Source: a candidate division WOR-3 bacterium (lineage in GTDB: Bacteria; Hydrothermota; Tepidihabitantia; Tepidihabitantales; DTDR01). Taken from it: a stretch of DNA of 45,377 bases. The position numbers were made by a program, and so were the translations under genes. The notes under the pieces are model-generated. The model was given only the letters and a program-made list of their open reading frames with translations, ran no database searches and had not been told where the DNA came from. How positions within the stretch are numbered: position 1 is the stretch's first letter; each line of letters opens with the position of its first letter. The stretch spans positions 1 through 45,377 of the forward strand of contig JBDRVN010000007.1 in NCBI GenBank assembly GCA_039801885.1, in the 5' to 3' direction. Below are positions 385 through 33,511 of this stretch, in pieces.

Positions 385-834
385 TTATTTTTTCTGGATT
401 TTTCTTTTGGGTAAGATACTATTCAATACCGGAAGTTCGCCATATTTTTCTAAATAATCATTTAAAGCCTCTCTTTCTTTTTCATCAATCTTAGTCTTAT
501 TTAATTTTTTAAAAGAGTATTGTAATCGGTAATTACTTTCATAATGTTTTTTAAAATTTTTTGTGCTTTTTATTAAATGAAACATCTTTCCCTCACTATG
601 AGGAGATATATTTTTTTCTACAGCCCTTCTAAAGTTATTCAATCTTCTTCTTAAATTTTCTGTTTTACCAATCATCAGAATGCCATTTTTATCCTTCTTT
701 AAAAAACGGGGTATAGTAATTGGTTTTCCTTTACAATTTGCCAAACGAATTTTATAAATTGCACTCTTCTCATAAGAACATGGTTCTTTCTCAATATACT
801 TCCATTGACTCCATTTATTCTTCCGTCTATCCAT
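385..834 (-). CDS. GIY-YIG nuclease-like protein
   Basis: AIYKI...ILMIGKTENLRRRL matches the GIY/YIG...NLxxR pattern, with a downstream helix Glu (EKEREAL) and a PVLN motif. Confidence 0.65.
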   Translation of the reverse strand: MDRRKNKWSQWKYIEKEPCSYEKSAIYKIRLANCKGKPITIPRFLKKDKNGILMIGKTENLRRRLNNFRRAVEKNISPHSEGKMFHLIKSTKNFKKHYESNYRLQYSFKKLNKTKIDEKEREALNDYLEKYGELPVLNSILPKRKIQKK

Positions 835-1542
835 TTTTATTTAAAATATTATAGAAATCTTTTTAAAAAGTCAAATATGTAAAGATTAATAAAAAAATTT
901 TTACCATATTTGAAAGCTTCTTGCTAAATATGAATTTGGTAATTTGTGAAAAAAGAAAACGAACTTTTTGATGGAAAAGAGTAAGAATATTGGTTTTGCC
1001 ATTTTTATTTTGGATCTTTAATAATTTTCGCAAAGAAAAATATAAAGAATTGGCTCTAACTCTGCCTTGGAGATTAGGGCTTAATAAATAAAGAGTAATA
1101 ACTTATAATTAGTCCAATTAGTTATGTTTTTAAATTCTTCTATTCTACCAGTTTTAATCTTAATTAAGAAAGACACTGATTTTTGAGTATTTCCTAAAAT
1201 ATAAGTATAAGGATTTTTAGGTTGATGTATCTTTACCTCTCTTCTCATATAACCTTCTTACACTCTTTAACTATTTCTTAACAGATTTACCTAAATAATT
1301 TAATTCTAATATAAAAGGAATTCTAAAAAGAAATATAAAAGCCTTAAATAATTTGAATGATTATTTAATAATCTAATTTATTTTTTATTGATTTCTTGAT
1401 TGTTAATTTTAATCATTATACCTTTAAAAACTAAATTAAAGACTAAATTCTATACTATCTCCTATACTGCTCCCTTCTCAATAGAAAGTAAAATCCTCCT
1501 GTTTTATTAATACAGATTTTAGAAAATATATAAAAGAAAGAT

Positions 1543-1752
1543 TTATTTAGGCATTAAATAAAGATAGGCAAAGACGCTAAACACCTCCTTTTTAGGTTTG
1601 TTTTTCAATAGCCCTTTCTTAATTGAATTACCTAAATCTAATACTATTTTTGTCCCATAATCCAAATCTAATAACTTTGGGTTACCTATAAGATATTGAG
1701 ATTTATTAACATAGATAATTATAACCCCTTTATTCTTATCTATTCTCCCCAT
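1543..1752 (-). CDS. Small hypothetical protein inside repeat copy A (paralog of 32514-32747)
   Basis: Start, stop and frame are conserved between the two copies, with several synonymous differences in KKGLLKNKPK. Confidence 0.45.
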   Translation of the reverse strand: MGRIDKNKGVIIIYVNKSQYLIGNPKLLDLDYGTKIVLDLGNSIKKGLLKNKPKKEVFSVFAYLYLMPK

Positions 1753-1758
1753 ATATAT

Positions 1759-1787
1759 ATGACGAAAAAAGACCCCTAAAGGTTACC
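1759..1787 (-). promoter_or_regulatory. Putative ECF sigma-factor promoter GGTAAC-N17-CGTCAT
   Basis: AAC...CGT spacing typical of ECF promoters; both boxes are kept in copy B while the spacer diverges. Confidence 0.5.
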
Positions 1788-1826
1788 ACTTTTTTTATTT
1801 ATTAATTTTTTATCTCTTAGGAATTT

Positions 1827-4003: not shown

Positions 4004-4734
4004 TGAAAATAGAGACTTAAAGTATGGGTATCTTTTAAGTGATAATGAAAATTAAGAAAATAATAAATACCAAAAAATTCTTTTATTAATAAATCAAATT
4101 TAAAATTGGTACCAAAGGGAAGAAAATTAAATTCTTCGCCAAAAGATAGGTTTTTATTAACTCGGAAATCAAAACCAATCTTAAATCGCTCATCATCTTT
4201 TGTTTTTAAATAGCAAGAAGAAACTAAAAAATTTTTAATAAATTTTAAATCTATTCCGAAGATCAATTTTTCCTTTATCTCTTCATTCCAGATTTTTGGT
4301 TTATTAATATTAAATATTGCTAAAGAGAAAGATAACTTCTGCCAATTATAAAGAAAACCAAAATGATAGGTAAGAAAGAGATTGCCATTATTAGCAATCT
4401 TAAAATAACAGAAATTGGGTGAGAAACCATAAGAGAAATTTTTGATTTCCTTGGTATAAGTTAAAGAAAACCGATTCTCACTATAATTGGAATGATAAAG
4501 ATTTTGAATCAATAATCCAAAATTTCTAAATTTTGTTTGGCAATTAAAATAGTTTAAAGAAGCTATCTTATAGGGATTAGTATAAGATAATAAAAGAATA
4601 TTTTTCTTTTCTTCCTTAAGATAACTGGGATTAAGGTAAAAAGATTTATTTAGGGATTTACTGATAACTGAGGTATTGAGTTCCTCAATTTCAAAAAGAG
4701 CGATTTTAAATAAGGTAATAAAGAAAACGACCAC
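3997..4734 (-). CDS. Probable outer-membrane beta-barrel (PorV/PorQ-like)
   Basis: Hydrophobic N-terminus, FYLNPS (NPA-like), alternating strands, C-terminal aromatic signature LSLYFQW. Confidence 0.45.
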   Translation of the reverse strand: MVVFFITLFKIALFEIEELNTSVISKSLNKSFYLNPSYLKEEKKNILLLSYTNPYKIASLNYFNCQTKFRNFGLLIQNLYHSNYSENRFSLTYTKEIKNFSYGFSPNFCYFKIANNGNLFLTYHFGFLYNWQKLSFSLAIFNINKPKIWNEEIKEKLIFGIDLKFIKNFLVSSCYLKTKDDERFKIGFDFRVNKNLSFGEEFNFLPFGTNFKFDLLIKEFFGIYYFLNFHYHLKDTHTLSLYFQW

Positions 4735-5056
4735 AATTGGGACAGGTTTTTATTTCGGTTCGGCAGCGGGCAATTATTTCTGAAGGAAGTTTAATATAAC
4801 AACCGCTACAAAAACCTTTAATTACCTGGACAACTACTTTGCTTCCGTAATGTTTTTTTATTCGGTCGTATTCTTTTAAAAGGTTTTCATCGATTTTTTT
4901 GCGCAGTTTTGCTCTTTCCCTTTCAATCATTTTTACAAAATCAATATTTATTGGTTCGATAACGAAACCTAATTTTTGATACTCCTTTTGCTCAAAATCT
5001 TTTAGAATGGAATCAAACTCTTCTAACTCTCTCAAAAGCTCAATCTGCTTTTTCAT
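4706..5056 (-). CDS. C4-type zinc-ribbon protein (DUF164/zf-RING_7), short form
   Basis: YDRIK...CSGCYIKLP...TCPNCGRFLY. Confidence 0.85.
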   Translation of the reverse strand: MKKQIELLRELEEFDSILKDFEQKEYQKLGFVIEPINIDFVKMIERERAKLRKKIDENLLKEYDRIKKHYGSKVVVQVIKGFCSGCYIKLPSEIIARCRTEIKTCPNCGRFLYYLI

Positions 5057-32038: not shown

Positions 32039-32377
32039 TTATTTAGGATTTCCTTCTATCTCAACGGTTCTGGTCGTAATCGTAAATACGCTTAAGAAAG
32101 AAGAAATTAAGTAATCAACTACATCGTATTTGGTTTTAACTCTTATAGATCCAAGATTATTTTCTTTAATAATCGGGGCTGTTGAATTATTGGTAAGTGG
32201 AACTAAGCCGTAAACAGCGTACCACACTTTTTTAGTTACTTTAAAAGAAGCGGGATCCGAATCCGAAAGAAGTGTGATTTTCTCTCCGGGTGGTGCACTT
32301 ACAATTACGGTAGCACAACCGAAAAAGGTAGAAACTAAAAATAAACCAATTAAAGAAAGAAGTAATGTCTTTTTCAT
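32039..32377 (-). CDS. Bor/Iss-like small lipoprotein
   Basis: Lipobox FFGC, WYAVYGLVP, terminal TRTVEIEG; AGGAGG SD and TTGACA-N16-TATACT promoter. Confidence 0.7.
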   Translation of the reverse strand: MKKTLLLSLIGLFLVSTFFGCATVIVSAPPGEKITLLSDSDPASFKVTKKVWYAVYGLVPLTNNSTAPIIKENNLGSIRVKTKYDVVDYLISSFLSVFTITTRTVEIEGNPK

Positions 32378-32463
32378 ACTTCCTCCTTTTTAGTCATAAC
32401 TTTTGAGTATAACAAATTTATTCTAAATGTCAATAAGAAAGAATAGACATTAAGAGATGTTAG

Positions 32464-32890
32464 ATAAATAAAAAAAGTGGTAACCTTTTGGGCTATTTTT
32501 CCGTATTATATATATGGGGAGAATAGATAAAAAGGAAGAGATTATGATTATTTATAGTAATAAATCCAAATATGGTATGAATAACTTAAAGATAATGGGT
32601 TTAGATTATTGGGAATTAAAATATCGGTATTATAGGATAAAAAAAGAATTAGATTTTGGAATTTTAGTTAAGAAGGGGTTGTTGAAAAATAAACCTAAAC
32701 TGGAGGTGCTTAAAGTCTTTGATTTTCTTTATTTAATAACTAAATAAATATCCCTTTTATATACTTTCTAAAACCTACATTAATAAAACAGGAGGGCTTT
32801 ATTTTCTTTTGAGAAGGGAGCAGTATAGGAGATAGTATAGTATCCAATATTTAAAAGTATAATAATTAAAGATCAATATTGAAAAATCAT
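32464..32890 (+). repeat. Dispersed ~420 bp repeat, copy B
   Basis: Aligns to the reverse complement of 1388-1802; carries GGTAAC-N17-CGTATT at 32479-32507. Confidence 0.9.
32514..32747 (+). CDS. Small hypothetical protein inside repeat copy B
   Basis: Paralog of 1543-1752 with a net in-frame 8-codon insertion. Confidence 0.45.
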   Translation: MGRIDKKEEIMIIYSNKSKYGMNNLKIMGLDYWELKYRYYRIKKELDFGILVKKGLLKNKPKLEVLKVFDFLYLITK

Positions 32891-32911
32891 AAAGTTTTTG
32901 GTTTTGATATT

Positions 32912-33511
32912 TCAGAATAAAACAAAAAGCATTTTAATACCAAAGTAAATTATTATAATCCCTAAAATAAAAAGAAGATAACGATAAATTTTCTTTTTGG
33001 CAAAAGAAGATAAAGTAGCAATAAAAATAAGCCAAAAATAATCTAAGGAAACATGAAAGATATATAAAATAGAAAGACCAATAAAACCGCTCTTTTTTAT
33101 CGCTTCGTAAATTAAAGGCATACCTATTCCCAACCACCAGATAAGAAAGTAAGGATTAAAAAGGGATAAACCAATACCTGTTAATAACGGAAAGGAAAGT
33201 TTTTCTTTAACATAAGCAGATGGGTTGTAACTTAATGCATCTTTAATAGTTAAAATTCCAAAAAGAAAAAGAAAGAGACTACCAAAAATTCCTAAATAGA
33301 AATAAAGCTTTTCTGATTTCAGAAAATTCATTAACCCCAAACCAATCAATAAAACTATCGGAAATTCAACAAAAGTATGGCCGAGGCTTATTTCTAAACC
33401 GGCTTTCCATCCTCTTTTTACTCCCCAGGAGGCGGTAGCAGCAGTTAAAGGTCCTGGTGCTAAAGCACCAGAAATACTAATAATCATTACTTTTAAAATT
33501 AATTCAACCAA
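32912..33511 (-). CDS. LysE/RhtB family translocator
   Basis: SGALAPGP, G..AG....GH...E, SLFNPYFLIWW; multiple TM helices. Confidence 0.9.
   Translation of the reverse strand: MVELILKVMIISISGALAPGPLTAATASWGVKRGWKAGLEISLGHTFVEFPIVLLIGLGLMNFLKSEKLYFYLGIFGSLFLFLFGILTIKDALSYNPSAYVKEKLSFPLLTGIGLSLFNPYFLIWWLGIGMPLIYEAIKKSGFIGLSILYIFHVSLDYFWLIFIATLSSFAKKKIYRYLLFILGIIIIYFGIKMLFVLF

Follow-up and report, generated by a model that had tools for sequence, protein, structure and literature searches.

Decaying copies, probably, of a capsid-fold gene cassette at many chromosomal sites of a candidate division WOR-3 genus

Lipothrixviruses carry two paralogous major capsid protein (MCP) genes, MCP1 and MCP2, side by side. 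Promoters of the group 4 extracytoplasmic function (ECF) sigma factors, such as sigma-W, -X and -M of Bacillus subtilis, consist of an AAC box followed after 16 or 17 nt by a CGT box, and pneumococcal BOX elements and miniature inverted-repeat transposable elements (MITEs) are intergenic repeats of modular build whose ends are conserved while the interior varies. The element described here resembles each of these in part. It occurs twice, in opposite orientation, in a stretch of 45,377 nucleotides (the window) comprising positions 1 to 45,377 of contig JBDRVN010000007.1 in assembly GCA_039801885.1 of a candidate division WOR-3 bacterium. We consider it probable that the two copies are internally deleted, decaying paralogues of a small cassette of capsid-fold genes which is present at many chromosomal sites of one WOR-3 genus; a conserved small protein, a small RNA and a mobile element are each less likely. 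Passages of a 2024 review present the Adnaviria MCP as unique and the realm as unconnected to bacterial viruses, and no work on bacterial or cellular homologues of Adnaviria capsid proteins was found among the listings and abstracts returned by full-text literature searches.

The genome (G000) comprises 1.555 Mb in 70 contigs with 30.9% G+C and is 91% complete; it was compared with five other genomes of the same genus (G001 to G005; C numbers denote contigs). The window copies, at 1388-1802 (-) and 32464-32890 (+), are homologous over some 420-445 nt at roughly 80% identity, with repeat arms at 1436-1674/32616-32854 (239 nt, 81%) and 1654-1802/32464-32612 (149 nt, 80%); rescored with their own two-copy profile in nhmmer they give E values of 1e-128 and 1e-130. 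The original prediction had described two homologous copies in opposite orientation at these positions, and the arms and the profile agree with it. Direct reading of the sequence bears out its GGTAAC-N17-CGT motif and its open reading frames (ORFs) of 69 and 77 amino acids (aa), the ATG that it placed 8 nt after CGT(C/A) being the same as one 9 nt after the T of CGT. The net in-frame indel of 24 nt and the synonymous changes AAA/AAG, CTA/TTG and AAC/AAT in KKGLLKNKPK are likewise present in the alignment of the copies. The parts of copies A and B are as follows.

1762..1806 (-): copy A, 5' promoter module; A-tract, GTGGTAAC (-35-like, GGTAAC 1787-1782), 17-nt spacer, CGT (-10-like, 1764-1762)

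1543..1752 (-): copy A, 69-aa open frame with ATG at 1752-1750; putative remnant of an ORF2-type capsid-like gene, the last ~37 residues being homologous

1450..1542 (-): copy A, conserved 3' tail; AACAGGAGG, CTTTC, GGGAG and, as its end, the near-invariant GCAGTATAGGAGATAGTATAG (1470-1450)

1383..1449 (-): copy A, 3' extension common to copy B, matching its G005 orthologue at 100% identity; contains a tandem duplication of 12 nt and TATAAT (1420-1415)

32446..32504 (+): copy B, promoter and the insert's 5' flank; TAAGAGAT..., GGTAAC 32479-32484, 17-nt spacer, CGT 32502-32504; the start at 32446 is set by reference to G003, where the site is empty

32514..32747 (+): copy B, 77-aa open frame with ATG (32514-32516) at the predicted transcription start; C-terminus homologous to ORF2

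32748..32840 (+): copy B, conserved 3' tail, with GCAGTATAGGAGATAGTATAG (32820-32840) at its end

32841..32923 (+): copy B, 3' extension with TATAAT (32858-32863), running to the end of the segment absent from G003

An intact form of the cassette was found at G000:C2:48761-49661. Here a promoter of the window type is followed by a leader with a Shine-Dalgarno (SD) sequence, ORF1 (120 aa), ORF2 (105 aa) and a tail of the window type, the two genes overlapping at ATGA. Both genes are also intact at G005:C2, G003:C13, G004:C22 and G002:C11; at G004:C55 ORF1 is intact and ORF2 shortened to 81 aa. A tRNA-like sequence adjoins the full-length cassette upstream at the last-named locus (L048). The ratio of non-synonymous to synonymous substitution rates (dN/dS) is 0.07-0.25 for ORF1 and 0.06-0.21 for ORF2, with dS often saturated; ORF1 and ORF2 are thus real genes under purifying selection. 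The neighbours of the G000:C2 cassette are priA, tamB, an aminotransferase gene, an aspartokinase gene and scpB, and its context is chromosomal, not proviral. Word-indexed searches returned only eight close relatives of each gene, those with a name being assigned to 'candidate division WOR-3 bacterium'. Neither the window ORFs nor ORF2 have a match in PHROGs, Pfam or PADLOC, and ORF1 has only a sub-threshold match in Pfam, to PF12193.

AlphaFold models of the two products are all-helical, with predicted local distance difference test (pLDDT) values of 64.4 for ORF1 and 77.7 for ORF2. When the ORF2 model was compared with 48,161 PDB chains, the six top matches were all Adnaviria MCPs (Z 9.2-12.3) and the next, unrelated chain had a Z of 7.1. 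The six are AFV1 ORF140 (Z 12.3, root-mean-square deviation 3.8 over 93 residues), AFV1 ORF132 (Z 12.0, 1.5 over 73 residues), the SIRV coat protein (Z 11.6), SSRV1 (Z 10.6), the virus of entry 5w7g (Z 10.4) and SIFV (Z 9.2). For the ORF1 model the seven best chains are again all Adnaviria MCPs (Z 8.4-11.5), the next chain reaching 7.8. In the models the intact genes also have a C-terminal four-helix bundle after a long N-terminal helix, a feature of the SIRV2 fold.

Since helical bundles can give Z values of this size, it is the sequence tests that carry the weight of the capsid link. A profile of eight ORF1 sequences found 345 proteins at E ≤ 1e-3 among 1.84 billion representatives; an alignment of 70 sequences was made from the query (first row, P0001) and 69 of the 150 listed profile matches, chosen at about 115-150 aa. 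Ten of these 70 match PF12193 (Sulf_coat_C, best E 4.6e-12), two SFV1_VP4 and two MCP_C. P0041, which matches the ORF1 profile at E 8e-12, scores 39.7 bits with PF12193, for which the cut-off is 25.2. The 70-sequence profile in turn matches the capsid chains of SSRV1 (6wq0, E 2.5e-6), SFV1 (6d5f, 7.4e-6) and SIRV2 (3j9x, 8.7e-6). ORF2 is identified as a paralogue of the ORF1 family by profile-profile comparison (hhalign probability 94.8, E 5.6e-8).

Some results count against the capsid relationship. Helical bundles can reach a Z of about 13 through a common arrangement, and ORF1 and ORF2 entered the comparison as models; Foldseek ranks the Adnaviria MCPs first but with E values of 0.3-1.2; ORF1 on its own reaches PF12193 at E 0.044, short of the cut-off; and the narrow eight-sequence profile matches no capsid chain among the PDB sequences. 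A Foldseek search of BFVD gave nothing at E ≤ 0.001, with rudivirus coat proteins among the weak rows. As far as the models go, the intact genes show the relationship in fold, and the sequence link of the ORF1 family to the Adnaviria MCPs appears as a transitive one only. A heterodimer of ORF1 and ORF2 was predicted with a score of 0.48 (best control 0.00), which lends weak support to pairing (run agreement at least 0%, partner pLDDT at least 62). Of 157 solved complexes 116 attain this score, as do 2 of 215 mismatched pairs; among those that attain it, both mismatches stay at 0.60 or under, but only 18 of the 157 solved complexes do so.

Matches to the capsid-like family were present in all 19 other sampled genomes of the order, 3-25 in each, and in none of the 101 sampled elsewhere in the phylum. 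Weaker capsid-profile matches were seen at G000:C16:9410-9679 and C4:28843-29112 (E 2e-7 and 3e-6), inside frames of about 300 aa that are not associated with GGTAAC-N17-CGT.

At the DNA level the cassette is a modular family. The original prediction had suspected many copies genome-wide, and nhmmer indeed found 31 matches to the 5' module (26 at E < 1e-5) and 17 to the 3' tail in G000. Sixteen of the tails follow a 5' module of the same strand at a distance of 130-744 nt, and the remaining one, on C17, is served by its own minimal promoter. Contig ends lie within 100-200 nt of many 5' modules, which indicates that the assembly is broken by the repeats. Family DNA is present in all five other genomes of the genus, in copy numbers that vary widely from genome to genome, and in 35 genomes of the order's other families only two marginal matches (E about 2-4e-4) were obtained; as judged by such searches, the cassette was found only in this WOR-3 genus. 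Within G000 a range of deletion forms exists. C40 retains ORF1 with an ORF2 of 36 aa, C9 and C41 have in-frame fusions of 28-31 aa, C14 is degenerate, and at C17, C20:26697, C21 and C5 the promoter is joined nearly directly to the tail.

G000 contains a second repeated module, in which CCTTTACTTGTCAAGGTATTT..GCTATATTATT and an SD sequence precede small Asn-rich repetitive ORFs (MNNNTFINGNNNTSIKVINNAF...); it is located at C12:37100-37267, C13:34349-34560, C39:2018-1947 and C59:7852-7910. It often stands just downstream of an HTH_17 gene with a GGTAAC-N17-CGT promoter, and in C12 the promoter is fused straight to it.

The relation of the window copies to the intact cassette follows from both of their ends. 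Against G000:C2, the window cassette DNA matches in the 5' module (E 6e-10) and again over the end of ORF2 and the tail (E 5.6e-17). A profile of the short ORFs aligns with the ORF2 profile over 37 columns (hhalign probability 94.8%, E 4.9e-8), covering residues 67-103 of ORF2, where helix 3 ends and helices 4-5 lie. The remainder of the 69 and 77 aa is leader-derived or unalignable, and the capsid fold was not found in the window ORFs themselves. Their first ten codons or so correspond to the old leader. Copy A, C27a and C15 now read ATA in place of the one-time SD-led ATG; in copy B this codon persists as an inner in-frame ATG (32544, codon 11) preceded by the SD-like AAGGAAGAG-N5. Between copies, the N-terminal two thirds of the short ORFs cannot be aligned.

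One of the readings originally offered was a stress-induced small-protein family encoded by the window ORFs. In its developed form this would make the short cassettes stress-induced, ECF-driven genes for functional leaderless proteins of 40-83 aa, each ending in a capsid-derived, basic-hydrophobic helix pair which might modulate or cap full-length assemblies. We regard this as unlikely. Some of the evidence does speak for translation, and to that extent weighs against simple decay. Among eight copies with an ATG at the predicted start, six are open to the conserved stop (40-83 aa) despite different internal deletions, as are 11 of the 16 tail-bearing copies; since these open frames exceed what about 8% stops per codon (at 31% G+C) would leave for long, some selection for translation is possible. 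Indels are in frame between copies and between orthologues, the three copies that have lost the SD-led ATG retain the upstream one, and dN/dS is about 0.2 for copy B against C27b and 0.21 for copy B against its G005 orthologue, the latter from only three synonymous and three non-synonymous changes. However, the other two of the eight (C19 and C31) are frameshifted, most pairs of short ORFs have dN/dS of 0.5-1.0, and the comparison of copy A with its orthologue in G005 yields 1.8, from 2.7 synonymous and 18.3 non-synonymous changes. The N-terminal regions are those that defy alignment, and the remnant lacks bundle helices 2-3. Frameshifts and a dN/dS near 1 were named by the prediction itself as signs against coding; on that rule it is doubtful, for copy A at the very least, that a conserved small protein is encoded. 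By sequence comparison the window ORFs are identified as 3' remnants of a capsid-like gene, under relaxed constraint. A type I toxin-antitoxin reading was rejected on peptide features, the peptide being highly charged with no membrane-spanning stretch.

Comparison of sites among the sister genomes bears on whether the short forms arose in place or arrived as small elements. The minimal form at G000:C17 has both flanks 75-85% identical to those of the full-length copies G004:C22 and G002:C11; the short, frameshifted cassette at G000:C19 occupies, by both flanks, the position of the full-length copy in G003:C13; and the intact G000:C2 site corresponds to G004:C55 and G005:C2. Where sister genomes have a full-length copy at the site of a short form, the short form is better explained by deletion within, or conversion of, a resident cassette than by the arrival of a small transposing element. 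C19 bears the hallmarks of the window subtype at a site where the sister species holds a long form, so that gene conversion between copies is likely, and the patchy divergence of the copy A orthologues (ends identical, changes clustered in the 3' half of the ORF and the tail) fits such conversion. The G005 orthologue of copy A retains, flanked by ATTAG repeats, the 24 nt that copy A lacks, which points to a recent, microhomology-mediated deletion. In hot-spring metagenome DNA contigs the depth is raised on the cassette, and joints run from 32514-32529 to various downstream points, as would be expected of other deletion variants.

The original prediction had also considered a non-autonomous mobile element, which would have conserved ends recognised by an enzyme encoded elsewhere and a dispensable interior. 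Conserved ends, a variable interior, the promoter-plus-tail minimal forms and the widely differing copy numbers accord with this, as do the many copies at contig ends. Three site comparisons tell against a purely static picture, the first and the last of them favouring mobility: presence and absence at site B are clean, G003 lacking window positions 32446-32923 (with 2 nt instead), which insertion would explain too, these coordinates coming from BLAST at the one site compared; G002 has neither the cassette nor the LysE gene; and synteny with G005 stops exactly at the 5' end of copy A. AGAATA occurs at 32440-32445 and 32914-32919, at both ends of the 478-nt site B difference, but in DNA of 31% G+C a 6-bp repeat fits microhomology deletion as well as target duplication, and breaks at repeats are expected from homologous recombination. 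No transposase or integrase gene lies beside any copy examined, in line with the earlier statement that copies A and B are not adjoined by a transposase gene and have no obvious terminal inverted repeats; the inverted pairs detected are AT-rich chance pairs, none being present at both termini in both copies. Three loci, moreover, are site-conserved across species, with short forms replacing long ones in place. The empty site with its AGAATA ends thus fits deletion and insertion equally well, and the missing inverted repeats and the replacements in place make the mobile-element idea improbable in our judgement.

Six 5' modules in G000 (C36, C40, C44, C41, C20 and C6) come right after GTCGC(A/T)A..., with which the repeat of a CRISPR (clustered regularly interspaced short palindromic repeats) array on C31 begins, and this abutment could be counted in favour of mobility. 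The array itself (repeat GTCGCAATCCCTTTTTAATCAGGGAAGGAATTTTGAC, about four copies; G000:C31:3775-4186 and 4480-4811) is small and lies about 300 nt from a short cassette. As a general insertion site the CRISPR repeat was rejected: GTCGC-N8-22-AAAGTGGTAAC occurs at two places in G005 and at none in G001-G004.

The 5' module of decaying paralogues and of intact cassettes alike has the form of an ECF promoter. In both window copies AAAAAAAGTGGTAAC, a 17-nt spacer and CGT are followed by a TATATAT run before the ATG. GGTAAC-N16-18-CGT alone is not enriched (31 occurrences in the genome vs 25 in the reversed genome), and with N1-3-TATAT added the figures are 23 vs 0. All 23 strict copies have the 17-nt spacer, variable in its middle, and fit the ECF-type -35 AAC and -10 CGT at 16-17 nt; as a sequence pattern, the promoter originally proposed is thus upheld. 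The module precedes capsid-like genes, an HTH_17/excisionase-like gene (five copies, mostly at contig ends; Pfam E 6e-9) and another capsid-like paralogue at C2:24315-24644. Other results are unfavourable: the three ECF-like sigma genes (on C23, C22 and C19) have no such motif in the 250 nt upstream in this 91% complete assembly; the motif is not found upstream of the capsid-like genes at 10 inspected loci of other genera; and a single RNA run (X10, contigs) covers the serpin and Bor-like neighbours and has no cassette contig, which shows neither transcription nor silence. An eleventh inspected locus, in G002 of this genus, has the near-match GGTAAG-N17-CGT. On this comparative support an ECF-type promoter is plausible. 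In the other genera (L077-L083; G008, G012, G010, G014, G022) the capsid-like genes are preceded not by the AT-rich module but by long G+C-rich leaders with hairpins, e.g. GCGCCATCTCC...GGGATGGCG and CGGCAG...CTGCCG, which may be a conserved structured 5' untranslated region.

The 3' tail is about 110 nt long, and its core, GCAGTATAGGAGATAGTATAG, is near-invariant among 25 distinct tails and recognisable in G003, G004 and G002 although the synonymous sites of the genes are saturated. This conservation, higher than that of synonymous sites in the adjoining genes, could mean that the conserved parts act as RNA, the promoter's transcript being regulatory and the tail a functional domain, for example with alternative hairpins around the SD-like AGGAGG. 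Two small helices that exclude each other, GGAGG/CTTTC and CTTTCT/AGGGAG, are 94% and 91% paired in the 25 tails, with some double changes; in the copy A orthologue CTTTC/GGGAG has become CCCCC/GGGGG. Shuffled tails, however, are 91% and 88% paired, the consensus energy is only -2.4 kcal/mol, and the invariant GTATAGGAGATAGTATAG is unpaired and resembles a direct-repeat DNA site. A terminator scan found none in copy A or copy B. Searched against Rfam 15, the window yields nothing at gathering score and, at E ≤ 1, a single chance-level match to IS009 (17 bits vs 117), which lies outside the tail. We therefore think the RNA reading very improbable. The tail may serve as a direct-repeat DNA site, as a weak outward promoter or as an RNA switch. 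The sigma-70-like TTGAGA-N16/18-GATAGT/TAGTAT within the tail is no more than shuffles yield and was discarded.

The history of the decaying paralogues may be pictured as follows. The intact cassette consists of a promoter of ECF type, an SD leader, the overlapping paralogous ORF1 and ORF2 and the conserved tail, and its products, as modelled, share their helical fold with the MCPs that wrap DNA in archaeal filamentous viruses. Deletions at short repeats probably removed ORF1 and most of ORF2 from the window copies, leaving the promoter, the tail and, between them, the final helix pair of ORF2 preceded by the old leader, which an ATG at the predicted start now makes part of the reading frame. 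The promoter may be active and ECF-dependent, and promoter and tail may persist either as selected parts or through protection by gene conversion. The remnants would at most be expressed as short, fast-evolving peptides unable to form the fold.

An MCP so far described only in archaeal viruses would thus have relatives in a whole WOR-3 order that carries the family in several copies. In one genus the capsid-like genes form a recognisable cassette that has a promoter type and a 3' element to itself, and the window repeats, taken alone gene remnants, appear to record its decay. The family could offer a testable system for the origin of a virus capsid protein and possibly a new kind of bacterial DNA-coating protein, and a class of repeats that breaks the assemblies of these genomes would be explained. 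It is a long shot, yet conceivable, that this is a bacterial, cellular branch of the Adnaviria capsid proteins in which stress-promoted DNA-coating pairs protect the chromosome of a hot-spring bacterium, the retained truncated copies tuning or capping assembly through C-terminal fragments or tail transcripts. Such coating would parallel the packaging of A-form DNA by the viruses and the small acid-soluble spore proteins (SASPs) of spores. On this view the capsid protein of the archaeal viruses would have come from such a cellular family, or else bacteria would have domesticated it.

The rest of the window is ordinary chromosome, with genes for ribosomal proteins, a serpin, a LysE-type exporter, RpoA, ArgRS and FtsK. 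On its downstream side copy A is followed by a 55-codon frame at 1082-1246 (-) and by a gene at 385-834 (-) for a T5orf172/GIY-YIG-like endonuclease of 149 aa (E 0.007 in Pfam, E 0.002 to a PHROG endonuclease). The whole left arm of the window, 1-1797, is found elsewhere in G005, beside a nucleotidyltransferase/HEPN-like pair, and may belong to a variable island. Near copy B, TTGACA-N16-TATACT with a TG (11 of 12 matches) at 32406-32433 (-) is the likely promoter of a Bor-like lipoprotein gene at 32039-32377; the TGTCAA complement of this promoter accounts for an apparently conserved TGTCAAT upstream of copy B, which is present at the G003 empty site as well.

Compared with ECF promoters, the 5' module is alike in its GGTAAC and CGT boxes, its 17-nt spacing with a variable spacer core, the T-run before CGT and the upstream A-tract. 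Unlike in typical ECF systems, no cognate sigma factor was found for it, and the module is copied with its flanks, so that its conservation is partly common descent. Like BOX elements and MITEs, the cassettes come in dozens of copies of varying length with conserved modules at the 5' and 3' ends; they differ in having no inverted termini, in an interior that appears to be a decaying protein-coding operon and in the occurrence of long and short forms at the same orthologous sites. The closest likeness is to the Adnaviria MCPs (SIRV2 ORF134, 3J9X; SSRV1, 6WQ0; AFV1 ORF132/ORF140, 3FBL/3FBZ; SFV1 VP4, 6D5F; PF12193, PF21660 and PF25647), whose helical fold is common to the ORF1 and ORF2 models and of which the window copies retain the last two helices only. 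Whereas those proteins are viral, with archaeal hosts, ORF1 and ORF2 are encoded in the chromosome of a bacterium among housekeeping genes such as priA and tamB; their family is multicopy and site-conserved across species, and no other virus genes were seen alongside. Like the MCP pairs of the lipothrixviruses, ORF1 and ORF2 are adjacent paralogues.

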